From assembly GCA_012965045.1 (NCBI GenBank), contig DTSZ01000001.1, positions 156,937-220,936 on the forward strand: DNA of 64,000 bases, given 5' to 3'. Both the position numbers and the translations under genes were made by a program. Below the pieces are notes generated by a model. The model saw only the letters and a list, made by a program, of their open reading frames with translations, did not search any database and was not told where the DNA came from. The DNA comes from Candidatus Saccharimonadota bacterium. Its GTDB lineage: Bacteria > Patescibacteriota > Saccharimonadia > Saccharimonadales > DTSZ01. Shown here piece after piece: positions 1 to 62,219 of this stretch (positions are counted from its first letter, which is position 1; the number at the start of each line of letters is the position of its first letter).

Positions 1-52
1 AAGTATACTTTGATTGTTTCTTTAAAAAAGTAGTATTTCTCTGTTTTATTTG

Positions 53-520
53 GCAAGCTGCCGCTTACAAACCTCTCGCCCATTTGTGTCGACAAACGGG
101 CACAAAACGACTGGGCGGGGCACCCATCTCTTGAGTAGCTGTTAGTACTAAAAACATTCTCAAAAAGAGTACTTGATACAAGAGTGCTCCCAGCACTCTT
201 GTTCAGGCACGCATTTTGAGGTGAGGTTCACATGTTTTTGACTACAACAGCCTACTCAGGAGATTGCTGCTTTAGGCCCAGACCCAAGCGAGCAAAGCTC
301 GCAATGCAGCTAGTCCACTTTGAACTTCTTCCTGATGAAGAATGCTTTTTGCACAATTGCTCGGAGGGCGAGGACCACGGAAGCGAATACTTGGAGCTTT
401 CTCCCGCAGCCAATTGTGTAAAAAGCAATGAAACATAAAGAAGGAGTGAACGTGGTGATCTTTTGGCTCCACCGTTTTGATCACTCAAAATGGTGGAAAT
501 GAGGGCAGGCGGCAGCTTGC
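53..520. repeat. Large structured intergenic element, copy A (~468 nt, full length)
   Basis: Closed by a perfect 12-nt inverted repeat, gcaagctgccgc (53-64) with gcggcagcttgc (509-520). An inner end-to-end pairing joins 79-100 to 469-496. The core 223-348 aligns base for base (roughly three quarters identical by eye) with 41160-41289. Long central hairpin 344-426. ORF 232..438 inside it is not conserved in copy C. Confidence 0.6.
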
Positions 521-1637: not shown

Positions 1638-3521
1638 ATGCTAGGACATCAACCATCATTCCGGCACTTTTTATATACTGCCGTGGCAAATATTGCCACG
1701 CTTATTTTTGTTGTGATCGGAACTATTCTAATTGTGGCTTTAGCGCAAGGCTACCGCTACGATGTCGCCAGTGGCGAAGTGTCGTTGTCGGGGTTGTTGC
1801 GAGTTGAGTCTCGTCCCGTTACGGCTGAGGTTTTTATAGACGGCCAATCAACCGATGAACGCACATCATACAAAGAAACAATCCCTGAGGGCTCGTATAA
1901 TGTGGAGCTTGTAGCTGATGGCTATCGAACATGGCAAAAAGACGTACAAATTCGAGGTGGACTTGTGGAGTGGCTTCGGTACCCACGGTTGATACCAGAA
2001 ACACTTGTAGCAGAATCTGTCTTAGCTCAGCCAGCAACGCAAGAACTAAGCTTTAGCCCGGATGGCCAGTTTGCCGTGCGCGGAACTGCTCAGGAGCTTG
2101 CCTTGCTTGACTTAACTAATCCATCAGCACAACAACAGCCAATTAACTTAACTGTCGGGCCAGATAGCAGCATCCAATCAATACTGTGGAATTCAAATGG
2201 CTCGGCTGCGCTGATTGTGATTGCTGGCGAGCAACCGTCGTTTGTCATTTTTGAGCCAGAAAGCTTAAAAGTAACCGATGTCACCAAGGTGCTGTCGAGC
2301 TTTACGCCTGTAGCTTTGCTTGAAGATCAAATTATTGGACGACGAGGAGCAAATGACTTGTGGGCAGTTCCAATAAATGGTGAAACTGTTAGTCCACTTG
2401 CAGCGAGCGCAACAGCCTTTAGTACCAGCCAAAATTACACAGTTTGGGTTGAAGATGGCGTTATATCACTGTGGGATGGTGAGCAGATTGTTGCCATCGA
2501 AGATGTAATTCGGTACCCACGGTTGATACCAGAAACACTTGTAGCAGAATCTGTCTTAGCTCAGCCAGCAACGCAAGAACTAAGCTTTAGCCCGGATGGC
2601 CAGTTTGCCGTGCGCGGAACTGCTCAGGAGCTTGCCTTGCTTGACTTAACTAATCCATCAGCACAACAACAGCCAATTAACTTAACTGTCGGGCCAGATA
2701 GCAGCATCCAATCAATACTGTGGAATTCAAATGGCTCGGCTGCGCTGATTGTGATTGCTGGCGAGCAACCGTCGTTTGTCATTTTTGAGCCAGAAAGCTT
2801 AAAAGTAACCGATGTCACCAAGGTGCTGTCGAGCTTTACGCCTGTAGCTTTGCTTGAAGATCAAATTATTGGACGACGAGGAGCAAATGACTTGTGGGCA
2901 GTTCCAATAAATGGTGAAACTGTTAGTCCACTTGCAGCGAGCGCAACAGCCTTTAGTACCAGCCAAAATTACACAGTTTGGGTTGAAGATGGCGTTATAT
3001 CACTGTGGGATGGTGAGCAGATTGTTGCCATCGAAGATGTAATTGAAGCTACCCCGACAGAAATTGATATTTTTGAATTTGAAAGTAAACAATACATAGC
3101 TGGGATGACTGACGAAGGCGGCTTTATTATTCGCGATGTTCTTGGTAAACAATCGGTGCGTGACTTGCCGGCCGCCACTGACTATATTGAGGCCTCAAGA
3201 AATGGCCACTATGCTCTGTTCGAAACAACTACCGGCTATAACACTGTTGACCTAGATCAAAACACCGTTCATCAGTTTACGTTTGACCAAGAGGCTGCAA
3301 ACATCCGCTGGGCAGACGATTTTTCGCTTCTAGCAGAGGTTGGTGAGGCCCATGTCCTACTCGAATTCGACGGCGGCAACCAAGAAGTTGTAACTACAGC
3401 GTTGGATGCTTCTGATGTTGTTTTGTCTCAGTCTGGCCGGTCAGCCTACGTGGTGTCAGAAATTGCTGGATCAAACTCTACCGTACTCGACCAAATTAGC
3501 CTCATCGTTCAAGACAATTAA
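1638..3521 (+). CDS. Membrane-anchored PEGA-domain protein with an internal exact 178-aa duplication
   Basis: N-terminal TM helix. A PEGA-like segment follows (AEVFIDGQ...PEGSYNVELVADGYRTW). The rest is a beta-rich extracellular-looking region containing the duplicated block. Confidence 0.7.
   Translation: MLGHQPSFRHFLYTAVANIATLIFVVIGTILIVALAQGYRYDVASGEVSLSGLLRVESRPVTAEVFIDGQSTDERTSYKETIPEGSYNVELVADGYRTWQKDVQIRGGLVEWLRYPRLIPETLVAESVLAQPATQELSFSPDGQFAVRGTAQELALLDLTNPSAQQQPINLTVGPDSSIQSILWNSNGSAALIVIAGEQPSFVIFEPESLKVTDVTKVLSSFTPVALLEDQIIGRRGANDLWAVPINGETVSPLAASATAFSTSQNYTVWVEDGVISLWDGEQIVAIEDVIRYPRLIPETLVAESVLAQPATQELSFSPDGQFAVRGTAQELALLDLTNPSAQQQPINLTVGPDSSIQSILWNSNGSAALIVIAGEQPSFVIFEPESLKVTDVTKVLSSFTPVALLEDQIIGRRGANDLWAVPINGETVSPLAASATAFSTSQNYTVWVEDGVISLWDGEQIVAIEDVIEATPTEIDIFEFESKQYIAGMTDEGGFIIRDVLGKQSVRDLPAATDYIEASRNGHYALFETTTGYNTVDLDQNTVHQFTFDQEAANIRWADDFSLLAEVGEAHVLLEFDGGNQEVVTTALDASDVVLSQSGRSAYVVSEIAGSNSTVLDQISLIVQDN
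1977..3044 (+). repeat. Perfect tandem direct repeat, 2 x 534 bp, in frame within CDS 1638..3521
   Basis: 1977-2510 and 2511-3044 read identically. The ORF track also shows identical antisense ORFs at 2090..2287 and 2624..2821, offset by 534. Confidence 0.9.
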
Positions 3522-13949: not shown

Positions 13950-13964
13950 ATAGATTTTAGTCAA

Positions 13965-14205
13965 GCTCTGCTTGCCATTACTCTTCCATTTTTGTCTCGT
14001 CAAAAACGGAAGCCAAAAACACGACCGCATTCATCACTCTTTATGTACTCATTGCTTAGAAATACAACGATCACAACAACGCCCAAGCGGTTTGGCTATA
14101 ATTTTATTGGATTACGCCAAACAAAGTTGTTCGCTCAAGTTGTATTTTAAGCATTCGGTACATCAGGAATGATTCAGAGCGGAAAGGGCTACAGTGTCGG
14201 CTTAC
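13965..14205. repeat. Structured intergenic element, copy B (partial, inverted relative to copies A and C)
   Basis: 13983-14170 aligns with the reverse complement of about 41290-41450. The alignment covers the cttccattttt...aaaaacggaag end module and the long hairpin 14054-14152 (gcttagaaatacaac / gttgtattttaagc). The other half of the element is missing. Confidence 0.5.
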
Positions 14206-14352
14206 AACTAAAACTAGTGAACAGATTCGTCTATTTAGCGATTATAGCCATAATTATAACCAGAAGTTATGCTAACTCGAATCAGCAAAGCTCATGCTTG
14301 CACAGTATATCGATACAGATGTATAAATATATATAATTAACTGCGAGATACT

Positions 14353-36984: not shown

Positions 36985-37311
36985 ATGGTTAACCCTGTTG
37001 CTGTTGCCCGTGTAGAAATCTTAGACGAACATTTTCCCCACTGCGTAGAACCCTACGAACCAGTAGTTTATGCTGCACGATATTTAGCTGTTCTTGCAGG
37101 GAAAGTCATTATTGAAACGGGTAAGAATCCGATACCAGCGAACATGCAAGATATCAAAGCGAGCATGCAAGATATCAAAGGTATATTTGGTGATGATACA
37201 GAGGCTTGGGATGAATTAATTGGACCTTGTTTACGTGATGAAGAATTGTGTGTTCGTGCGGCAAATGTGGCTGAAATTTTAGCGGAGTCCGAGAGGTCTA
37301 TTCATGGCTAA
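36985..37311 (+). CDS. Unknown 108-aa ORF inserted between atpA and atpG (X1)
   Basis: The ATG lies 3 nt after the atpA stop. Its stop overlaps the atpG start by 8 nt. No recognised motif. It contains a 21-nt tandem duplication. Confidence 0.5.
   Translation: MVNPVAVARVEILDEHFPHCVEPYEPVVYAARYLAVLAGKVIIETGKNPIPANMQDIKASMQDIKGIFGDDTEAWDELIGPCLRDEELCVRAANVAEILAESERSIHG

Positions 37312-38262: not shown

Positions 38263-38266
<4 letters not shown>
37304..38266 (+). CDS. atpG: F-type ATP synthase subunit gamma (with a ~28-aa low-complexity insertion)
   Basis: IKRRITSVKSTKQITKAMELVAASKLRRAQ N-terminus and ITQEIAEI..G C-terminus. The extra segment is KASQNKEKREKSEEDNSLGSELSTPSSSR. Confidence 0.9.
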
Positions 38267-40294
<2,028 letters not shown>

Positions 40295-40295
40295 C

Positions 40296-40622
40296 ATGGT
40301 CCAAGGGGTTGATGGTATACATAAAAAATTAGCCTGGCTACCCGACGGTGATTGTGCGGATCGCGCATACGAGATTAACAGCATTATTGCGCGAGCTCGA
40401 CGCAACCCTATTATCCCAATAGACTGGCTTGAAAGTGACTTAGCAGCATTGTCTACCGGAAGCACCGATGATGCAGAGAAACTATCAGCAGCAGCTTCGC
40501 TGGCGACTTTTGTAGCATGTTTCGACAGTCAGCTATATTTAGTAGAAGTGCCTGAAGACCCCGAGGAATTAAGAGATAGTTTACAACAGCAAATTGAGAG
40601 AAAGTTTGGTATTGATGTCTAA
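40296..40622 (+). CDS. Unknown 108-aa ORF inserted between atpD and atpC (X3)
   Basis: The ATG lies 1 nt after the atpD stop. Its stop overlaps the atpC start by 8 nt (atgtctaa). No recognised motif. The track ORF start at 40233 lies inside atpD. Confidence 0.5.
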   Translation: MVQGVDGIHKKLAWLPDGDCADRAYEINSIIARARRNPIIPIDWLESDLAALSTGSTDDAEKLSAAASLATFVACFDSQLYLVEVPEDPEELRDSLQQQIERKFGIDV

Positions 40623-41052
40623 TCTTACGTTCGAACTAGTCACACTTGATGGGTTGGCTCACTCGAGCGAGTGTTACGAGGTTATATTGCCTACAGAAAG
40701 CGGCATTATTGCCGTCTTCCCTAACCATGCCCCGCTTGTTTCGGTAAGTGTCCCTGGTGTTGTGAGCATTCGCAAACGAGCCACCGACAGTGATGATGAT
40801 CTTGTTCATTTTGCTGTTGATGGCGGTGTTATTGAAATAAATGAACGTCGTGTACGGCTATTAGCTGACGAAGCTGATGAGGCGGATTCTATAGACGAAA
40901 TGCAAGCCCAAGCGGCGCTTAAACGCGCTCGAGAGCTGCAAGCAATGGCTAAAGATAAAGTTAACTTAGCTGATGCTACGGCGCTAATTGAGCGACAAGC
41001 AGCACGGCTTAAGGTTGCTGAGATTAAGAGACGATCAAGGAAGAATCATTAA
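40615..41052 (+). CDS. atpC: F-type ATP synthase subunit epsilon
   Basis: The start LTFELVTLDG...ILPTESGIIAVFPNHAPLV matches the epsilon beta-sandwich pattern, with a helical C-terminus. Start placed at the ATG at 40615. Confidence 0.85.
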   Translation: MSNLTFELVTLDGLAHSSECYEVILPTESGIIAVFPNHAPLVSVSVPGVVSIRKRATDSDDDLVHFAVDGGVIEINERRVRLLADEADEADSIDEMQAQAALKRARELQAMAKDKVNLADATALIERQAARLKVAEIKRRSRKNH

Positions 41053-41074: not shown

Positions 41075-41473
41075 TAGCGTAGGCTGGCACTTGCCAAACA
41101 TTCTTCCATTTTTATGTCAGTAAAAACGGAATCCACCCTGCCTACTGGTAGGCAGGGCGAGGATCACATGTTTTCACAAACAACAGCCTCATAGGGAGTG
41201 TGCGCGTTTTAGGCCCAGACCCTAAGCGAGCATAGCTCGCATTGCAGCTACTCCCACTTTCTCAATCTTCTTGATCAGCGAGTGCTTCAAATACAACTAA
41301 AGCAAAAAACTTTGCTGAGCGTAGTCCTACGAAGTTATAGCGAAGCCGCTTGTCGTTGTTTTTTGCGTTGTATTTCTAAGCAGCGAGATGATAAAGAAGG
41401 TTGAGTGTGGTCGTTTTTTGGTGTTCCCGTTTTGACGAAATGAAATGGGGGCATTTGGTGGTAAGCGCTAGCT
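41075..41473. repeat. Large structured intergenic element, copy C (~400 nt, full length)
   Basis: The ends pair over a long interrupted stem: gctagcg/cgctagc, ccaaa/tttgg, ccattttt/aaaatgg-type and aaaaacgg/ccgtttt. Internal hairpins are ccctgccta-ctgg-taggcaggg (41137-41158), gcgagcatagctcgc (41227-41241), and the long hairpin 41285-41382. It lies between the convergent stops of atpC and ORF 41490..42215. Confidence 0.6.
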
Positions 41474-41489
41474 TACATCTAAACTAAGC

Positions 41490-42215
41490 TTATAAAACTT
41501 CTATTTGAGTAATAGCATTATCACTCAAAACCCTAACAGTAGCAGTTGCAAGCAACTTAGCAAGGATGATGCTGTCTTCGGAGTCGATTCCAAATGCTGT
41601 TGCTCTGCTGCGAGCATGATTTGAGTCGAGGTTGAAGGTTGTTGTAGATTCTGTTTCAGGGTTGTTTGCTTCAGCAGAATCGTATGTTCGTCCTGTATCG
41701 CCATCTTCGGTTAATTGACCTGCAGTATGCTCGCCGGTGTAAGTAATTAAGTTTGCTCCTGCTTCTATAGCCGTTTTTACTAGTTCGCCTCCGATTTTTA
41801 CAAAGTATTTTTCGTTCGTAATTTTCCTTAAGCCTTCTGTGAGTTCTTCTGCTCTGCTTTTGTCTGATGAGTGTAATCCAGAACCACTAAAGACAGACTC
41901 AAAATTAGTAGTTAAGTCTGTTGATATTTCTACGATTTTTGCAGCAAACCCGCAACCGTCATACTCTGATCCGTGATCTTGGTCGTTATGTACATTATAT
42001 TGCGGCCCAAAAGTGGCTACGTCGTCCAATACTGAGTCAACTAGTGTGGTTGGTGTGTTAGAATCATCGGCTGACTCTACGATGTCGCGTGCAAAGCTGA
42101 AGAACAAATCAGCGCCAGGTACTTGATTTAATTCCCCGTTCTCTACGCCCAGAAATGCTCTGTCCTCAATACAACCAGATTTTTCACCTTGAATAGTTGT
42201 TGTTCTCGTGGACAT
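41490..42215 (-). CDS. Hypothetical protein (orphan, 241 aa)
   Basis: ORF with an ATG start, acidic and Thr/Ser-rich, no TM helix. Arg codons are mostly AGA/AGG. Its stop is 17 nt from element copy C. Confidence 0.5.
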   Translation of the reverse strand: MSTRTTTIQGEKSGCIEDRAFLGVENGELNQVPGADLFFSFARDIVESADDSNTPTTLVDSVLDDVATFGPQYNVHNDQDHGSEYDGCGFAAKIVEISTDLTTNFESVFSGSGLHSSDKSRAEELTEGLRKITNEKYFVKIGGELVKTAIEAGANLITYTGEHTAGQLTEDGDTGRTYDSAEANNPETESTTTFNLDSNHARSRATAFGIDSEDSIILAKLLATATVRVLSDNAITQIEVL

Positions 42216-43744: not shown

Positions 43745-44596
43745 TTATCGTTGAATTGTACTGGGTAATCGTAACTTTTCTTGACGGATAACTCGGGCAG
43801 CAATACGTGCTTTTTGCTTATTAGGAATTCTAATTCTTTGATGCTTAAGTATTGCTGCATCAGTTGATTTAAGTTTGTCTAACAGAGCTGTGTACAGAGC
43901 GTGGGCTAACAGTACTCCAGTTTTTGCGGAACTCGGTAGTTGGTCAATTGCTGGCTCGGCAATAGTTAAGTCTTTTTCGATATCTTCAATAACTGCAAAT
44001 TTTGTTTTATTGGTAAATGACTCAAAACTATCGATTGGAAAATAATATCGCCCGAGTAGATTGTTGTCTTCAGCCATGTCGCGCAAGAAGTTAATTTTTT
44101 GGAAGGCTGCACCCAAAGCCCCCGCACCAGCCTGTAATTTTTTATATTCGCTGTCATTTCCTTCTACAAAAATACGTAAACACATCAATCCGACCACTTC
44201 AGCCGAACCATAAATGTAGTCGTTATATTGTTTTTTACTGAGCTTTTTAGGTACGGAAATGTCTGACGCCATACTGGCTAAAAATGGGTCAATTAATTCG
44301 TGGTTTATATTAAATTGGCGAGCAGTAATTTGAAAGGCATGCAGGGCTGGGTTTGGACTAAATTGTTGCTGAATGCTGGCATATGTTTGGTTTTTGAATT
44401 CTTCTAATATTGTAGCTTTATCGGGGCCGTCGTAGGTGTCTACAATTTCATCTGCTACTCTCAAAAATCCATAAATATTAGCAATGTGGCGTCGGATGTC
44501 TTTTCTAAATAGCCGCGTACCGCTCGAAAACGATGTGCTGAACGAACGAATAAGTCGATAGCTTGAATCTTGAGCAGCTTGGTCGTAACGACTCAT
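43745..44596 (-). CDS. crtB: Phytoene synthase (squalene/phytoene synthase family)
   Basis: SFSTSF, the Asp-rich VADEIVD, and YGSAEVVG...FLRDMAED motifs. Lies within the carotenoid cluster. Confidence 0.85.
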   Translation of the reverse strand: MSRYDQAAQDSSYRLIRSFSTSFSSGTRLFRKDIRRHIANIYGFLRVADEIVDTYDGPDKATILEEFKNQTYASIQQQFSPNPALHAFQITARQFNINHELIDPFLASMASDISVPKKLSKKQYNDYIYGSAEVVGLMCLRIFVEGNDSEYKKLQAGAGALGAAFQKINFLRDMAEDNNLLGRYYFPIDSFESFTNKTKFAVIEDIEKDLTIAEPAIDQLPSSAKTGVLLAHALYTALLDKLKSTDAAILKHQRIRIPNKQKARIAARVIRQEKLRLPSTIQR

Positions 44597-45609
44597 TAAT
44601 TTTGCCTGCCAGATAACCTATCAATGAGCGATCGGTAGATGTCTTTAAAAGAATCGTCAATTGTTAGCTGGTTAAGGAGTTCTTTAGCTTCTGTCGAGCA
44701 GTTATGGATGAGCTGGACGACTTCTTCTTTAGCGCCAGTTTTTAGAATTATCTGCCGCACCTTTTCGATATCTTTATTGGCTAGCTCTGTGGCTCCAAGA
44801 GACTCCAGCAATTTACGCCCTGCTGCGTCGGTCTTTGTATAGCTGTTAAGTAACAGTTTTGTGCGCTTGCCCTCTTCGATGTCGGATGATGTTGATTTGC
44901 CAGTGGTTTCTGTGTCACCAAAGACTCCTAAAATGTCATCTCGCAGCTGAAATGCATAGCCGCACAGCTCGCTTAGGTTGGTTAGTTTCAGAATTTGATC
45001 TTCTTCTGCCTGAGCTAGCCGCGCCGCCGATACAATTGGCCCCAAAAATGAATAGCTGGTTGTTTTGTAGCGGTTAATTAGCTCAGAGTCTATGTCGCCA
45101 ATTGGCAAAAAGGCTGACTCGACATCAATTAATTCGCCCCCTGCAACCTCAAAATATGCCTGTTGGAAATAATGCCCCAAAATTTGCGCATCCTGGCTGT
45201 TTGCCGACGATTCATGAATGATATTTTGGGCGTCCATTAACAATAAGTCGCCAGCTAATAGTGCTGCGCTATTACTAAAGTGAGTAACATCACTACTGTT
45301 TTTTAGGTGTTTTTGATAATGAACCTTGTATATGCCAGCCGCATTTGAACTGCCGTGGCGCACAAAATCTCGGTCAATAATGTCGTCATGCATTAACAGC
45401 GAAATGTGCATTAACTCCCAGACAAGGGATTGCTTGATTACCTGGGGTGTAATGTCACCCCCATATGCTTGGTAGGTTAACAAAAATAGGTACGGTCGCA
45501 ACCGTTTACCGCCAGCTAGCGCGGTAGCTTCAGCGGCGTCCCATAATCGTACATAATTTTCATGAATTGAAGCAGCTTGTTTTTTGCGTTCAGTAAAGTA
45601 GTGGCGCAA
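44596..45609 (-). CDS. crtE: Polyprenyl (geranylgeranyl) diphosphate synthase
   Basis: LLMHDDIIDRD (FARM) and FQLRDDILG (SARM) motifs. The TTG start at 45609 is uncertain, because the in-frame upstream stretch looks coding but has no canonical start. Confidence 0.8.
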   Translation of the reverse strand: MRHYFTERKKQAASIHENYVRLWDAAEATALAGGKRLRPYLFLLTYQAYGGDITPQVIKQSLVWELMHISLLMHDDIIDRDFVRHGSSNAAGIYKVHYQKHLKNSSDVTHFSNSAALLAGDLLLMDAQNIIHESSANSQDAQILGHYFQQAYFEVAGGELIDVESAFLPIGDIDSELINRYKTTSYSFLGPIVSAARLAQAEEDQILKLTNLSELCGYAFQLRDDILGVFGDTETTGKSTSSDIEEGKRTKLLLNSYTKTDAAGRKLLESLGATELANKDIEKVRQIILKTGAKEEVVQLIHNCSTEAKELLNQLTIDDSFKDIYRSLIDRLSGRQN

Positions 45610-45733
45610 CTCGGTATCGACACATTTCTTAACCTCACCTAAATTTGAAATGTCTATGCCTGTAGTTTTAATCTGCGAAACATCAGACTGTGCTATGACT
45701 CATCCTTCTTGTATTTATAATTGAGTATACAGC

Positions 45734-46345
45734 TTAGTCAGCTTCGGGCGAAGCTTCAAACGCTTGTATAACTTTAGTACGATCGCTGAAATATTCTGTA
45801 TAGATGTCTTCAAGTTTAGGGTCAAGGTCGTTGAGTTGACTGCCGATAATTGCAAAGGCTTCGTCGTAGCGTTGCACGGTATCGTTGTAGCTGTTTATTT
45901 CTTGCTTGATGTCTGTAGATGCTGACGACACCCGCTTATCGAGCAGTGGCCGCATGGCTTTATTCTGCTGATCGTCTTGTCGATAGTAGGCAACGTGCAG
46001 CATTTCGTGCGCCGCTGTCACCAAGGTTCGTTTGTATTCGTCGACGCTGTTAAAATCGACAATAAAGATCCCGTCATTGGTAAAACATCCAAGCACTATT
46101 TCGCCAAAACCGCATTGATCTTCTATCTCGGCTTCGCTGAGTAATTTTGGTTCGTATCTATAAAATAGTCGTTTGCCGGTTTCGCTCATTCCGGCGTCAT
46201 TTGCAATCTGCTCAATTAGTTTCGGTGGACTATAGCTTAGTGAGTGCAGCCAGTCATTTATTTTAGTAGCATTTGGCAAAGCAAACGCAGCAAACCCCAA
46301 CAGACCAACTAGTACAACGATTTGCGACAATACTTTTTTAGACAT
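45734..46345 (-). CDS. Membrane-anchored hypothetical protein with HExxH metalloprotease-like motif
   Basis: The ATG at 46345 overlaps the crtI stop by 8 nt. It has an N-terminal TM helix and an AAHEMLH motif. Confidence 0.5.
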   Translation of the reverse strand: MSKKVLSQIVVLVGLLGFAAFALPNATKINDWLHSLSYSPPKLIEQIANDAGMSETGKRLFYRYEPKLLSEAEIEDQCGFGEIVLGCFTNDGIFIVDFNSVDEYKRTLVTAAHEMLHVAYYRQDDQQNKAMRPLLDKRVSSASTDIKQEINSYNDTVQRYDEAFAIIGSQLNDLDPKLEDIYTEYFSDRTKVIQAFEASPEAD

Positions 46346-47939
46346 GAATCTGCTCCGGACGCAGCGGCCCACTGCTAGTGTCGCCAATAAGGCGTTTAAA
46401 CATAAGTTCGGCACTAATAAGAGTTGTCGGCAGGCCAATTCCAGGGTTGGTATTAGCGCCAACATAAATCATATTTTTAATTGCTTTGCTTTGGTTGTTC
46501 GGCCGGAATATTGCCGTTTGCTTAAGCGTGTGAGCGAACCCTAGGGCCGATCCATTTTGACTATTAAATCTCTCGAAAAAATTAAGATTACTAAAAAGAC
46601 GTTTGTAGACAATGTTTTTTCTGAGATCTGGTAAATTCATTTCTTGCTCCATGGTTCTGAGTATTGTATCGGCATAGACCTGCTCGTTCAGTTTTATTTC
46701 TTGCATGTCTAGCTTACTTGGCAGTGGTACTAATACAAATAAATTCTCATAGCCGTTTGGCGCAACTGTTGAGTCTGTTTTGGATGGATTACAAACATAA
46801 AAACTCGGGTCATCTGGAATGGTTGGGTGGTCAAAAATTTGTTCAAAATTATGATCCCAGTTTTTTGAGAATACTAAATTATGGTGCTCCAGATTTTTAT
46901 ACTGCCCCTTTACCCCTAAGTAAAGTAGCAATGCGCCTGGCGCGGTCGTCATCGAATCCCATTTTTTTAATGGCCTTGTTGCGTCTTGTGGTCCAATTAG
47001 GCTGGCATCGGTGTGGCGCATGTCGGCATTATTTATAAATATGTCAGCTTCGACTACCCTGTCGCCTACATGAATTCGGCTTACAGATTTATCTTTAACA
47101 CGTATGTGCGTTATGGGCGTGTTGGTGTGCAGTTTTGCGCCATGTTTTGTAGCTACAGCAACAAGGGCTTTGGTGAGCTCATACATGCCGCCCTGTGGGT
47201 AGTAGACACCTTGATTGAAGTCGACATGGCTCATAATGTTATAGATTGCCGGTGCGTTGTAAGGACTGGCACCTAAAAACACCAATGGGTACTGCATTAT
47301 TTTTTTGGTGTAGTCTGTCTTGAAAAACTTAGACACATAGCGATCCATATTACTGAGTACACTCAGTTTGCTGCCCTGTACAATCATTTCTGGCGTAAAA
47401 AAGTCACGGAAACTATCGTAGTTTTTGTACATAAATCTATCCTTGGCGATTGCATACTGAGATTCGGCTTTTTGTAGGTATTTTTTAAGTTGCGTGGCCG
47501 AACCAGGTTCGAGTTTTTCAAATGTTGCCAGGTCTTTTGATAGGTCAGAATAAATAGTCGCCTGTTTGCCCGTGTCTTTAAAAAACACTTTGTAGCTCGG
47601 TGTTAGTTTTTCTAAGGTAATGTGATCGTGAATGTTTTCGCCCAGTAACGAAAAAAAATGCTCAAACACGTCGGGCATTAAATACCACGATGGCCCAGAG
47701 TCGAAGGTAAAGATTTCTTTGCTGCTGGATGAGCTTATTCCTGCAGCATGAGACCCATTGAAAGTATCAAGGTCTTTCCAGTTGCCGTTTTTATCTTGGC
47801 CGACTCTAAATTGCCCTGCCCTGCCGCCAAGTTGTTCATTTTTTTCAAATAACTCAACATCGTATCCAGCTTTTGCCAGCAATGCGGCAGAGCCAAGTCC
47901 ACCAAAGCCACCGCCAATAATTACAGCTTTATTCGGCAC
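46338..47939 (-). CDS. crtI: Phytoene desaturase (CrtI family FAD oxidoreductase)
   Basis: VIIGGGFGGLGSAALLAKAGYDVELFEKNEQLGGRAG dinucleotide-binding start and a C-terminal GANTNPGIGLP. Confidence 0.9.
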   Translation of the reverse strand: MPNKAVIIGGGFGGLGSAALLAKAGYDVELFEKNEQLGGRAGQFRVGQDKNGNWKDLDTFNGSHAAGISSSSSKEIFTFDSGPSWYLMPDVFEHFFSLLGENIHDHITLEKLTPSYKVFFKDTGKQATIYSDLSKDLATFEKLEPGSATQLKKYLQKAESQYAIAKDRFMYKNYDSFRDFFTPEMIVQGSKLSVLSNMDRYVSKFFKTDYTKKIMQYPLVFLGASPYNAPAIYNIMSHVDFNQGVYYPQGGMYELTKALVAVATKHGAKLHTNTPITHIRVKDKSVSRIHVGDRVVEADIFINNADMRHTDASLIGPQDATRPLKKWDSMTTAPGALLLYLGVKGQYKNLEHHNLVFSKNWDHNFEQIFDHPTIPDDPSFYVCNPSKTDSTVAPNGYENLFVLVPLPSKLDMQEIKLNEQVYADTILRTMEQEMNLPDLRKNIVYKRLFSNLNFFERFNSQNGSALGFAHTLKQTAIFRPNNQSKAIKNMIYVGANTNPGIGLPTTLISAELMFKRLIGDTSSGPLRPEQIHV

Positions 47940-47941
47940 TG

Positions 47942-48811
47942 CTATAACCGCGCCTTAACAACAATTAACACTATAGTCATGATCATGCCGGCGAGGTAAT
48001 TGGTTTTTATAAAAACATTCCACATGTTTCTAAAAATTGGGTTGGTGCTGTCTGCCGTATGTTTTACAGTACGGGCAACCCCGATGATATTCATACAAAT
48101 TAAGCCGGCAGCGACTAAACCAACCATTCCATAAAACCAGGCACTTATTACGGCAGCACCGATATAGAGAGTTAAAACAAAACTAGTTGTGCGTTTTGCC
48201 TCAAGCTGGGTAGCGATAGATTTTATCGACGCTTCCCTATCTGGTTTTATGTCCTGTATTGCCCCAAAAGCGTGGTTGGCCATCGCCCAAAGAAAGTACG
48301 CAATAAAGGCTGGTGCATACGTTGCGGCGTCGTTTGTTAACAGTAGTGCCAGCATAACTGGTGAGGTGTAGTGAAAACTTGAGGTTACAGAGTCCAGCAG
48401 TGGGATCTCTTTAAAGCGCAGCCCGTTTAAGCTGTAGGCCACGACCATGAATAGCATTAGCCCGAACCACAGGTTTGATTGCAGGTTCCCCGTGTAGAAC
48501 AAATAGCCAATAAACGGAACGTTGATTAAGCCAATCCACATCCATAGGCTTTGGTGCTTACTTTTTGGCAGCACAGAGGTTTTTCGAGGGTTTCTAATGT
48601 CTGATTCATAATCAAATATGTCATTAATGCCATACATGGCTAGGTTATACGGGAACAACAAAAACAATGTACCAATTATTACTCGGAGGTCAACTGCATC
48701 GCTTAGAATGACGTAGATCAAAAAGAATGGTTGAGCGGTAAAAATCCACCACAGTGGTCGGGAGATTATTAACAGTTCTTCGGAATCTATACCTTGTTTA
48801 AGTTTATTCAT
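47942..48811 (-). CDS. crtEb: UbiA-family prenyltransferase, lycopene elongase-like
   Basis: 8-9 TM helices with an NDIFDYESD (NDxxDxxxD) motif. It is positioned between the small cyclase subunits and crtI, as in actinobacterial C50 clusters. Confidence 0.6.
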   Translation of the reverse strand: MNKLKQGIDSEELLIISRPLWWIFTAQPFFLIYVILSDAVDLRVIIGTLFLLFPYNLAMYGINDIFDYESDIRNPRKTSVLPKSKHQSLWMWIGLINVPFIGYLFYTGNLQSNLWFGLMLFMVVAYSLNGLRFKEIPLLDSVTSSFHYTSPVMLALLLTNDAATYAPAFIAYFLWAMANHAFGAIQDIKPDREASIKSIATQLEAKRTTSFVLTLYIGAAVISAWFYGMVGLVAAGLICMNIIGVARTVKHTADSTNPIFRNMWNVFIKTNYLAGMIMTIVLIVVKARL

Positions 48812-57319: not shown

Positions 57320-57432
57320 TCACCATCTTCCTGCGTTTGAATGTCATGCAGGCTGAATGTAGCACCTTGCGTGAATTGCTGGTTGCTGGCGGGTCATAGG
57401 GTCAGGTCCCTCGCCGCTCTCTTGATGCCGAT
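57320..57432 (-). promoter_or_regulatory. SAM-I (S-box) riboswitch
   Basis: The minus-strand RNA is aucggcAUCAAGAGAGcGGcGAGGGACcUGaCCCuAUGAcCCgccaGCAACCagc...aaGGUGCUAcAUUCaGCcugc...gcaGGAAGAUGgugau. It matches the conserved S-box core and P1 pairing, directly upstream of metK. Confidence 0.85.
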
Positions 57433-61733: not shown

Positions 61734-61764
61734 AAGGTATAATCATCACGAATGGCGAGTCGCC
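61734..61764 (+). repeat. Copy of the tRNA-Gln promoter plus first 12 nt of the tRNA
   Basis: aaggtataatcatcacgaatggcgagtcgcc versus aaggtataatcaacgacaatggcgagtcgcc at 62126-62156 (27 of 31 identical). Confidence 0.7.
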
Positions 61765-61854
61765 CTACCTGCGGCAGGCAGGCAAGTGTGAGAAATACTT
61801 TAAAGTATTTCGCAAGGTCGGAAACCCGGCGCAAGTTATTGCCCGAGTTGAGAC

Positions 61855-61949
61855 GGGGTGAAACATGCTGGTAGCATGTTGCAAGGAAATCTACTCTTGA
61901 AAACTGGGTTTTCAAAGATGTAGTTTCGGGATCGCAGGATGTGATGCGG
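61855..61949 (+). repeat. Structured unit U1
   Basis: Homologous to 62007-62105 (offset 152). The hairpins acatgc-tggt-agcatgt and ctactcttgaaaa...ttttcaaagatgtag differ from U2 by compensatory changes. Confidence 0.6.
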
Positions 61950-61976
61950 AATTTTTACAAAGTAAAAATATCTGTG

Positions 61977-62010
61977 ACAAGGCACATGGTTTTGGTCCAT
62001 GCATTCGGGG
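61977..62010 (+). other. tRNA-Gln-like anticodon arm copy (no complete tRNA)
   Basis: aaggcaCATGGttttggtCCATGcattcgggg versus the genuine aaggcaCTGGAttttggtTCCAGcattcggggg. The loop is identical and the stem is re-paired with different bases. No T arm or acceptor 3' strand follows. Confidence 0.6.
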
Positions 62011-62105
62011 TGAGACGAGCCAGTGGCTCGTTGCAAGGAAACTTACTCTTGAAAATTAATTTTCAAAGAAGTAATTTCGGGCTCGCGGGACGTGAGTCGA
62101 ATCCG
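62007..62105 (+). repeat. Structured unit U2
   Basis: Contains the hairpins acgagc-cagt-ggctcgt and ttactcttgaaaa...ttttcaaagaagtaa. The perfect hairpin gtcgaat-ccg-attcgac (62096-62112) extends just beyond the aligned unit. Confidence 0.6.
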
Positions 62106-62129
62106 ATTCGAACCGGCGTGAATTTAAGG

Positions 62130-62135
62130 TATAAT
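62130..62135 (+). promoter_or_regulatory. -10 box (tataat) of tRNA-Gln
   Basis: A perfect TATAAT ending 9 nt before the mature tRNA 5' end. The same box sits at 61738-61743. Confidence 0.5.
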
Positions 62136-62144
62136 CAACGACAA

Positions 62145-62219
62145 TGGCGAGTCGCCAAGTGGTAAGGCACTGGATTTTGGTTCCAGCATTCGGGGGTTCG
62201 AATCCCTCCTCGCCAGCCA
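62145..62219 (+). tRNA. tRNA-Gln (anticodon UUG), CCA encoded
   Basis: Acceptor tggcgag/ctcgcca, anticodon stem-loop ctgga-ttTTGgt-tccag, T arm ggggg-ttcgaat-ccctc, then discriminator g plus cca. Confidence 0.9.

Follow-up and report, generated by a model that had tools for sequence, protein, structure and literature searches.

Foldback repeats dispersed between genes and large structured RNAs are the described systems closest to the element reported here. The element lies in a 64,000-nt stretch of chromosomal DNA (the window, to which coordinates refer unless a locus is named) from an uncultured bacterium that has been assembled repeatedly from Lau Basin hydrothermal-plume metagenomes, and whose source genome NCBI labels Candidatus Saccharibacteria bacterium. 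An original prediction made from the window had described three stretches, A, B and C, as a family of elements that were either a structured RNA or a DNA repeat of the BOX/ERIC type. We establish the anatomy of the element, its set of copies, its inverted ends, the covariation of its stems and the emptiness of its sites in relatives. We think it somewhat probable that the family is a lineage-specific, non-autonomous and non-coding foldback mobile repeat, of the kind represented by miniature inverted-repeat transposable elements (MITEs) and REPINs.

MITEs such as Correia in Neisseria and Nezha in cyanobacteria are dispersed intergenic repeats found in both orientations, with long hairpins and with empty orthologous sites in relatives, and the element resembles them in all these respects. 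It is also shorter than 600 bp (398-482 nt) and non-coding, with no transposase and no shared open reading frame (ORF), and its inverted terminal repeats are its best-conserved part. It differs from MITEs in that no target-site duplication was seen and no related autonomous insertion sequence or transposase lies in the ~104 kb examined. In addition, its interior is not a simple spacer, consisting instead of two separately folding long hairpins and an invariant block, and it has no sequence similarity in the collections searched.

REPINs and BIMEs are bounded by mirrored imperfect palindromes (PMC3116915), and two such palindromes, the subterminal hairpins HL (left) and HR (right), mark the ends of the element, six pairs of HR being changed on both sides between copies. 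Like REPINs, the element forms hairpins, is intergenic and exists as a diverged population persisting vertically in one lineage, and no target-site duplication is expected of such repeats. REPINs are, however, ~70-110 nt long, have a short spacer and number in the tens to hundreds, whereas the palindromes of the element are 320-390 nt apart and the element is 4-5 times longer. The conserved 5' tetranucleotide typical of REP sequences was not identified in it. A gene for RAYT, a Y1 transposase, is usually flanked by REP repeats; for the element none was found within the ~104 kb examined.

ERIC/IRU and BOX repeats are large imperfect palindromes of intergenic and 3' regions which come in size variants through internal insertions or modules and are probably co-transcribed with their neighbours, all of which the element recalls. 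ERIC measures 127 bp and the modular BOX less than 200 bp, and their hosts are enterobacteria and streptococci; the element is 3-4 times longer and has no sequence relation to either. PATEs, the non-coding derivatives of IS200/IS605, share with it subterminal imperfect hairpins at both ends and the lack of a target-site duplication, and the folding of single-stranded DNA is central to the movement of IS200/IS605. The end hairpins of IS200/IS605 have the same orientation and form no inverted repeats, unlike the ends of the element, which are true inverted repeats, so the element departs from the orientation rule of IS200/IS605 derivatives. Finally, the ROOL, GOLLD, OLE and HEARO/omega RNAs resemble the element in being several hundred nucleotides long, with multiple helices that show covariation, and in being sometimes tied to mobile DNA. 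In contrast to these RNAs, the element has no Rfam match even at E <= 10, folds equally on both strands, ends in inverted repeats, has long near-perfect helices and is not conserved across related genomes.

Results

Copies of the element

The DNA examined for copies comprised ~104 kb of the ~0.93-Mb genome and included the 64-kb window and a 20-kb locus (L035). Five copies were found in it, of which four are full and one is truncated; they lie in both orientations and are 70-80% identical to one another. Copy A (53-520, + strand) is a full-length copy of 468 nt and of a long-arm type, which aligns end to end with copies D and E and has a minimum free energy (MFE) of -211.7 to -213.1 kcal/mol (z -13.9). 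Copy C (41079-41476, + strand), the reference copy of the original prediction, has full ends and is of a short-arm type, 398 nt long, with an MFE of -154 to -156 kcal/mol (z -8.0). Both are real and lie where they had been placed, once their ends are refined to these positions. A core of ~130 nt had been said to be common to the two; blastn recovered it at 80% identity over a shorter alignment of 105 nt (A 220-321 with C 41156-41260).

Copy B (13960-14213, - strand) had been counted as a third member of the family with A and C. The membership stands, but B is a truncated and decayed copy on the opposite strand and not a third full one, as shown by blastn, global alignment and nhmmer. Positions 13997-14178 are the reverse complement of C 41260-41438 (76% identity over 182 nt), and B matches positions 247-467 of the nhmmer model with E 1e-19. 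It retains the right end, HR (13981-14012) and a long hairpin arm that we denote Arm II (central hairpin at 14053-14153). The global alignment showed that the left end, the other long arm (Arm I) and the central block between the arms are missing.

Copies D and E came from a spurious reading frame. One antisense frame is open by chance in A, B and C, and a profile of that frame was used as a search query. In a set of 1.84 billion representative proteins it matched a spuriously called ORF of 57 amino acids (P0132), which led to locus L035, a 20-kb part of a JGI "Mariner" contig that is 80.7 kb long and is assigned to the same organism. The vent-field sample series of this locus is that of a contig carrying part of the window. 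D (L035 10517-10036, - strand, 482 nt) and E (L035 6664-6202, - strand, 463 nt) are both full copies. Spurious short ORFs of 57, 43 and 39 amino acids are annotated inside D and C (L035 10001-10174, +; L035 10162-10293, -; L004 2894-3086, -).

The copies are mosaics of modules: E follows A throughout, D follows A over the left half and B/C over the right half, and the left arm is missing from C. Extrapolation to the ~0.93-Mb genome suggests some tens of copies, or ~2% of the genome. Pattern scans for the conserved core in collections of genomes, metagenomes and viral contigs gave chance matches only, the metagenome set evidently lacking the genome's own JGI sample, and blastn of C against plasmid and phage collections gave no match.

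The proteins of the window recur residue for residue in other assemblies of the same organism, whose contigs reach 929,678 bp, and copy C is identical across four independent assemblies. The lineage is isolated, since in a collection of 5.8 billion proteins its nearest relatives have MreB proteins only 76% and 66% identical to its own, and the nearest relative copy of a lineage-specific protein of 241 amino acids, encoded next to C, is only 54% identical.

Ends and internal anatomy

A full element measures 400-480 bp, and an imperfect inverted repeat of ~65 nt closes it on either side, the left and right ends being reverse-complementary to each other at ~65-75% identity. From the outside in, the repeat consists of a 12-14-nt terminal sequence, a short spacer, the subterminal hairpin CCATTT..AAACGG and the sequence CCAAAAC. 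In all copies the left terminus reads 5'-G(C/T)AAGCTG... and the right one ...CAGCTT(G/A)C-3'. The homologous left termini are GCAAGCTGCCGC in A, GTAGGCTGGCAC in C, GTAAGCTGTCGC in D and GCAAACTGTCGT in E; those on the right are GCGGCAGCTTGC, GCGCTAGCTTAC, GCGTAGCTTGC and GCGCCAGCTTGC, with GCAGAGCTTGAC in B. The termini are thus conserved inverted repeats and not unrelated stems. The contrary had been claimed, namely that the outermost stems differ between copies in a way that does not suit terminal repeats recognised by a transposase. That comparison was made in the wrong register, GCTAGCG/CGCTAGC of C having been set against GCAAGCTGCCGC of A, and the argument against conserved terminal repeats fails for this reason.

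The subterminal hairpins set the ends apart from the rest of the window. The motif CC[AG]TTT-N4-24-AAA[CT]GG occurs five times in the window, always at an end of the element, against 0.38 occurrences expected, and four more times at the ends of D and E. Left ends invariably have the form CCA..CGG and right ends the form CCG..TGG. A mismatch (A-C) is conserved in HL (CCATTT..AAACGG) and a wobble (G-T) in HR (CCGTTT..AAATGG). In reverse orientation, the left ends are matched by the part of the nhmmer model that covers the right end (E 0.025-0.06), and CCAAAAC, which follows HL, can also pair with GTTTTGG, which precedes HR. Among A, D and E conservation is highest at the ends, with a mean identity of 79-83% in the terminal stem P1, 85% in HL and 76-78% in the CCAAAAC/TTTTGG segments, compared with 74% in the central block, 56-69% in the arms and 39% at the apex of Arm II.

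A five-helix architecture is common to A, D and E, and RNAalifold finds 147 pairs in it, in 13 helices. The order is the 5' side of P1, HL, Arm I, an invariant block followed by a 6-bp hairpin, Arm II, HR and the 3' side of P1. Folding of A and C bears out the prediction that the two ends of the element pair with each other: in A the left strand of P1 (53-66, GCAAGCTGCCGCTT), whose homologues are the left termini of the other full copies (C, D and E) and which is 79% identical among A, D and E, pairs with the right strand (507-520, AGGCGGCAGCTTGC), which is 83% identical among them. HL of A lies at 78-101 with its A-C mismatch (85% identity among A, D and E), and HR at 468-497 (CCGTTTT..AAAATGG, with the G-T wobble) as its inverted counterpart; all these features of A are on the + strand.

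Arm I is a long imperfect hairpin of ~170 nt, at 111-281 (+) in A, where the left arm (111-188) pairs with 192-281 in a reverse self-match of 70%. Its 3' strand corresponds to the 5' half of the core of the original prediction; in A, D and E that half is one strand of the Arm I hairpin, and C is without the other strand. Between the arms lies the invariant block GCCCAGACCC with the 6-bp hairpin GCGAGC-NNN-GCTCGC (GCGAGC-AAA-GCTCGC in A, the whole at 276-302, +). A, C, D and E agree letter for letter in GCCCAGACCC, AGCGAGC and CTCGC, and the block is deleted in B.

Arm II combines a CCAC/GTGG helix, a helix of the CTTCTT/AAGAAG type and a central hairpin TGCTT...AAGCA; in A it spans 306-467 (+), with helices CCAC/GTGG and CTTCTTC/GAAGGAG and the central hairpin at 343-427. 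The prediction of a central hairpin that begins gctt and ends aagc holds good, (T)GCTT/AAGC(A) being present in A, B and C with stems that are different but mutually compensated.

Copy C keeps the ends, the central block and Arm II as in A, D and E, and the left strand of Arm I is replaced by a short GC-rich hairpin of 22 nt (41136-41157, +), followed on the - strand by a T run with a terminator-like score. Its other parts, likewise on the + strand, are HL at 41104-41131, the central block GCCCAGACCC with hairpin GCGAGC-ATA-GCTCGC at 41213-41240, Arm II at 41261-41405 (central hairpin 41283-41382) and HR at 41420-41455.

Some 30 nt leftward of P1, a loose similarity, GTAGTAT..CTCTGT..ATTTG (window 1-52; L035 10518-10556, -), links A and D and is absent from E and C. 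TAGTAT could be a -10 box, or the similarity may be due to chance in AT-rich DNA or to an element extending slightly further leftward.

Folding, covariation and strand

Compared with dinucleotide shuffles, the + strand of A folds at -213.1 kcal/mol (z -13.9) and that of C at -155.8 kcal/mol (z -8.0), and the corresponding - strands give z -12.3 and z -6.4. The two copies are the two folding outliers among the intergenic regions of the window.

Covariation was scored on a sequence-based alignment of A, D and E, with 500 shuffles and slid alignments as controls. Changes on both sides with pairing kept were found in 35 of 147 pairs, against 14.1 +/- 2.7 in the shuffles, none of which (0/500) reached 35, and 4-11 in the slid controls; standard pairs made up 91.8% of the cells of the alignment. 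Sixteen of these two-sided changes lie in Arm I (helices 3, 4 and 7), 13 in Arm II and six in HR. When the right halves of the five copies were compared (Arm II and HR), 23 of 50 predicted pairs had changed on both sides and still paired. For example, a helix that is CCAC/GTGG in A, C, D and E is CCGC/GCGG in B, and the third pair out from the wobble of HR reads A-T, C-G and T-A in A, C and B, respectively. A purely sequence-based alignment of B with C showed seven compensated and 15 broken pairs out of 78, where we estimate from the divergence that ~1 compensated pair would arise by chance. Within the three to five sequences compared, the stem covariation between copies that had been predicted is real, and pairing is actively kept or restored.

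Covariation of this strength brings up the reading that the element is a new class of large structured non-coding RNA, ~400-480 nt long and with five helices, whose genes or cis-acting copies have multiplied in the lineage and whose pairing is kept by selection on the RNA. The RNA would have two stacked multi-helix junctions, and its functional core would be the invariant central junction, consisting of GCCCAGACCC and the 6-bp hairpin. We regard this reading as rather unlikely, yet as a serious rival. The counts speak for it (35/147 among A, D and E; 23/50 in the right halves), as does the placement of invariant sequence at a junction between variable stems. The same helices exist on both strands, however, and covariation, which hairpin-forming mobile DNA should show as well, therefore cannot separate an RNA from a DNA reading. 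Nor does it discriminate for a second reason, since compensatory changes across the hairpin are also reported to be common in REPINs (PMC3116915).

In A, C and B the better fold is that of the sense strand, and the consensus structures contain slightly more G-U cells on the sense strand (51 versus 37), both of which suit an RNA. The consensus energy computed by alifold is, in contrast, slightly better on the antisense strand (-119.1 versus -114.5 kcal/mol), and the energies of the single copies are close on the two strands (sense/antisense: A -211.7/-204.2, D -153.8/-150.7, E -143.0/-145.2 kcal/mol). In the copies' own folds, 57 G-U pairs on the sense strand stand against 51 on the antisense strand over the five copies. 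The asymmetry is due to C alone (18 versus 4), and A, D, E and B show no sense excess, or the opposite. A functional single-stranded RNA would, in our experience, have a much larger G-U excess on its own strand.

Other features of the copies also disagree with a dedicated RNA. Its long, near-perfect helices (up to 17 bp) and its inverted-repeat ends would be unusual in a structured RNA of bacteria. One strand of Arm I is absent from C, and the stems of B are well paired even though the core is gone. Taken per nucleotide, the folding energies of the copies vary by a third (A -0.45, C -0.39, D -0.32, E -0.31 and B -0.30 kcal/mol per nt), and such uneven stem quality would fit copies of different age better than one uniformly selected RNA.

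Tests for known RNA families, coding sequence and transcription signals

Scanning of the whole window with Rfam 15 at gathering thresholds detected only two tRNAs and an S-adenosylmethionine (SAM) riboswitch, with nothing in the elements, and scans of A to E by E-value (E <= 10) gave nothing, or sub-threshold chance hits to eukaryotic miRNA and snoRNA models. The families covered include ROOL, GOLLD, OLE, HEARO, group I and II introns, hammerhead and other ribozymes, RNase P RNA, tmRNA, 6S RNA and SRP RNA. The statement that no known RNA family matches thus held in these scans; if the element were an RNA it would be new.

Scanning for promoters and terminators in the surroundings of A, B and C gave site numbers no higher than in shuffled sequence, and none of the sites is conserved. 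The lack of conserved promoters and terminators and the varying orientation to neighbouring genes also argue against RNA genes.

The ORF seen in A (232-438) is cut by a stop after eight codons in C, as had been predicted, and no ORF of at least 25 amino acids is common to the five copies by position or by sequence. This bears on a further reading, that the element is a small-protein locus or a type I toxin-antitoxin locus of the hok/sok kind, with a folded mRNA of ~400 nt whose 5' and 3' ends pair. The mRNAs of hok/sok-type loci have a similar length, a closing stem between the 5' and 3' ends and multiple chromosomal copies, and A and C contain the sequence GAGG-N5-ATG. The ATG is ACG in D and ACA in E, however, and the frame that is open in A, B and C has 27-30% amino-acid identity where the DNA has 70-76%. 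We consider this reading highly improbable, and the lack of a conserved ORF effectively refutes it.

Four more specific likenesses were rejected. A hammerhead ribozyme was suggested by CUGAUGA, which occurs in A and E only (CUGAUGU in B, CUGAUCA in D, UUGAUCA in C); GAAA follows the stem only in A, and Rfam gave no hit. An invertible segment with tyrosine-recombinase sites was dismissed on the ground that the spacers of the end palindromes differ within each copy and could not recombine. The strands of Arm I are no template/variable pair of a diversity-generating retroelement, as their differences are not adenine-specific. Ends of the IS66 type (GTAAGC...) were dropped as well; the 8-bp duplication expected of that family was not seen, ISfinder not having been consulted.

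Insertion sites and neighbouring genes

The sites of A and C were compared with five loci of relatives. C fills the 437-nt gap between the convergent atpC gene (stop at 41052) and the gene of the 241-amino-acid protein (stop at 41490). In one relative atpC and the homologue of the latter gene are 3 bp apart (L011), in two they overlap (L029 and L030), and in a fourth (L013) only an ORF for a 67-amino-acid membrane protein lies there. A lies in the 663-nt spacer between mreB and the next gene, a spacer of 140 nt in one relative (L032) and 55 nt in another (L034), and too diverged from those of the relatives to align. Gene order around A and C is otherwise conserved. The element is absent from the orthologous A and C sites in the five loci of relatives, the full-length nhmmer model found nothing in ~120 kb of relatives' DNA, and no comparably stable foldback stands out in the relatives' loci. 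This absence, including that at orthologous sites, also counts against the RNA reading.

As the loci of the relatives show, the copies entered intergenic DNA near gene ends. A, B, C and E start 10-32 nt past a stop codon, B 10 nt past that of a GH1 gene, and C and E fill whole gaps between convergent genes. D sits between divergent start codons that are 39 and 49 nt away. Orientation to neighbouring genes is not fixed, tandem, convergent and divergent contexts all being represented.

Whatever its origin, the element might serve the host, either as a 3' barrier to transcription or terminator between packed genes or as a 3' stabiliser, as has been proposed for REP/BIME and ERIC. Such a role is compatible with a mobile-repeat origin and is possible for some copies, and the positions of A, B, C and E just past stop codons and the filling of convergent gaps by C and E accord with it, as does a GC-rich hairpin followed by a T run, with a terminator-like score, that both A and C have on their - strand close to the element's far end. 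As an explanation of the family we find it improbable. It does not account for D, between two divergent start codons; the terminator-like sites are no commoner than in shuffles and are unconserved across copies; relatives manage without a spacer at the same sites; and 400-480 nt is far beyond what the function would need.

Other features of the window

A SAM-I riboswitch (57320-57431, - strand, 56.6 bits) lies upstream of the S-adenosylmethionine synthetase gene. Another strong fold, of ~370 nt (61752-62125, + strand; MFE -131.9 kcal/mol, z -5.2), is found just upstream of tRNA-Gln (62145-62219). This stretch and tRNA-Gln begin alike, with the same promoter-like 31-mer (61734-61764 and 62126-62156) and the same first 13 nt (ATGGCGAGTCGCC). 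The stretch contains two tandem modules of ~150 nt (61854-61903 / 62006-62055) with hairpins differing by compensatory changes, and it had no hit in Rfam even at E <= 5. It may be an unrecognised structured RNA.

Within the F-type ATP synthase operon, unannotated ORFs of 108, 207 and ~108-129 amino acids without a Pfam hit (36985-37311, 38263-38886 and 40233-40622) sit between atpA and atpG, atpG and atpD, and atpD and atpC, respectively. Four distant relatives (L011, L013, L029 and L030) likewise have ORFs that lack a Pfam hit at most of these positions, which suggests that the extra ORFs are conserved added members of the operon.

The gene of a PEGA-domain surface protein (1638-3521) contains a perfect direct repeat of 300 nt (1975-2274 and 2509-2808, spacing 534 nt) and is one repeat unit shorter in other assemblies (449 versus 627 amino acids), the sole difference between assemblies that was seen. 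A cluster at 43745-48811 (- strand) encodes a squalene/phytoene synthase, a polyprenyl synthetase, a desaturase-like member of the flavin amine-oxidase family and a UbiA prenyltransferase, a carotenoid- or isoprenoid-type pathway in a genome labelled Saccharibacteria. Some 4-9 kb past the right end of the window (L021 609-6217), a reverse-transcriptase gene (RVT_1, 519 amino acids) stands between hsdS-like and hsdR-like genes in a type I restriction-modification operon; no link between this gene and the repeat family was found.

Discussion

Several results favour a repeat at the DNA level over a dedicated RNA gene: empty orthologous sites, a truncated and inverted B, mosaic modules, equal folding of the strands and no consistent G-U bias. 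The alternatives offered by the original prediction, a structured RNA or a DNA repeat resembling BOX/ERIC, are supported in so far as the element is non-coding, falls in no Rfam family and shows covariation; the dismissal of transposon-type terminal repeats that accompanied them did not survive. A foldback mobile repeat fits best because the copies are dispersed, diverged and confined to one lineage, with conserved inverted ends, one decayed member, mosaic modules, no strand preference and no conserved signals for coding or transcription.

We propose that an enzyme encoded elsewhere in the genome would recognise the conserved ends and move the element. The most likely form in which it moves may be a folded single-stranded intermediate, as proposed for REPIN/RAYT and known for IS200/IS605, a suggestion we make because no target-site duplication was seen and the hairpins keep their pairing. 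The stems would then stay paired either because the element must fold in order to move or because mismatches get corrected, be it in the folded intermediate or in a quasi-palindrome. Compensatory changes are also known to arise when quasi-palindromes are corrected by template switching. Either a need for folding or the correction of mismatches would explain the compensatory changes without an RNA function. After insertion, the copies would have diverged to 70-80% identity and exchanged modules, and B would have decayed. Copies in 3' regions are probably transcribed passively with their neighbours.

A number of observations weigh against a mobile repeat. No direct repeat of 2-9 bp abuts A, C or D, and E alone is flanked by TTAA on its two sides; at 20-30% divergence the copies are old, and target-site duplications may have decayed. 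No common target sequence is visible in five right and four left flanks, and neither the 64-kb window nor the gene lists of neighbouring loci contain a transposase, RAYT or recombinase. Assemblies of the organism are identical over the loci compared, save for one tandem repeat unit in the PEGA-domain gene, and at this 100% identity no insertion polymorphism of the elements was seen. Typical bacterial MITEs and REPINs are smaller and less elaborately branched, and the element's invariant central block has no obvious role in transposition. The search for copies and for a helper gene covered only ~104 kb of the ~0.93-Mb genome.

Full-text literature searches found no relevant repeats or structured RNAs described for Saccharibacteria, Patescibacteria or the candidate phyla radiation (CPR). 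Genomes of CPR bacteria such as Saccharibacteria are ~1 Mb in size and tightly packed, and the gaps of the relatives are small or nil at the two sites compared. The element is a new sequence family among bacterial interspersed foldback repeats, unusual in its size, its branched architecture and its host. It affects the annotation of gene boundaries, as spurious ORFs are called inside its copies. It also gives a caution for RNA discovery, in that strong stem covariation occurs here in an element several of whose features speak against an RNA gene. Were the element an RNA after all, a poorly known branch of bacteria would have yielded a new class of large RNA; one could then tentatively picture an RNA of CPR bacteria that had multiplied in one streamlined genome and was perhaps the RNA part of its own mobility system, like omega and bridge RNAs, though we doubt it. 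If the element is mobile DNA, these lineages would carry their own long-lived non-autonomous elements, together with an enzyme that mobilises them.

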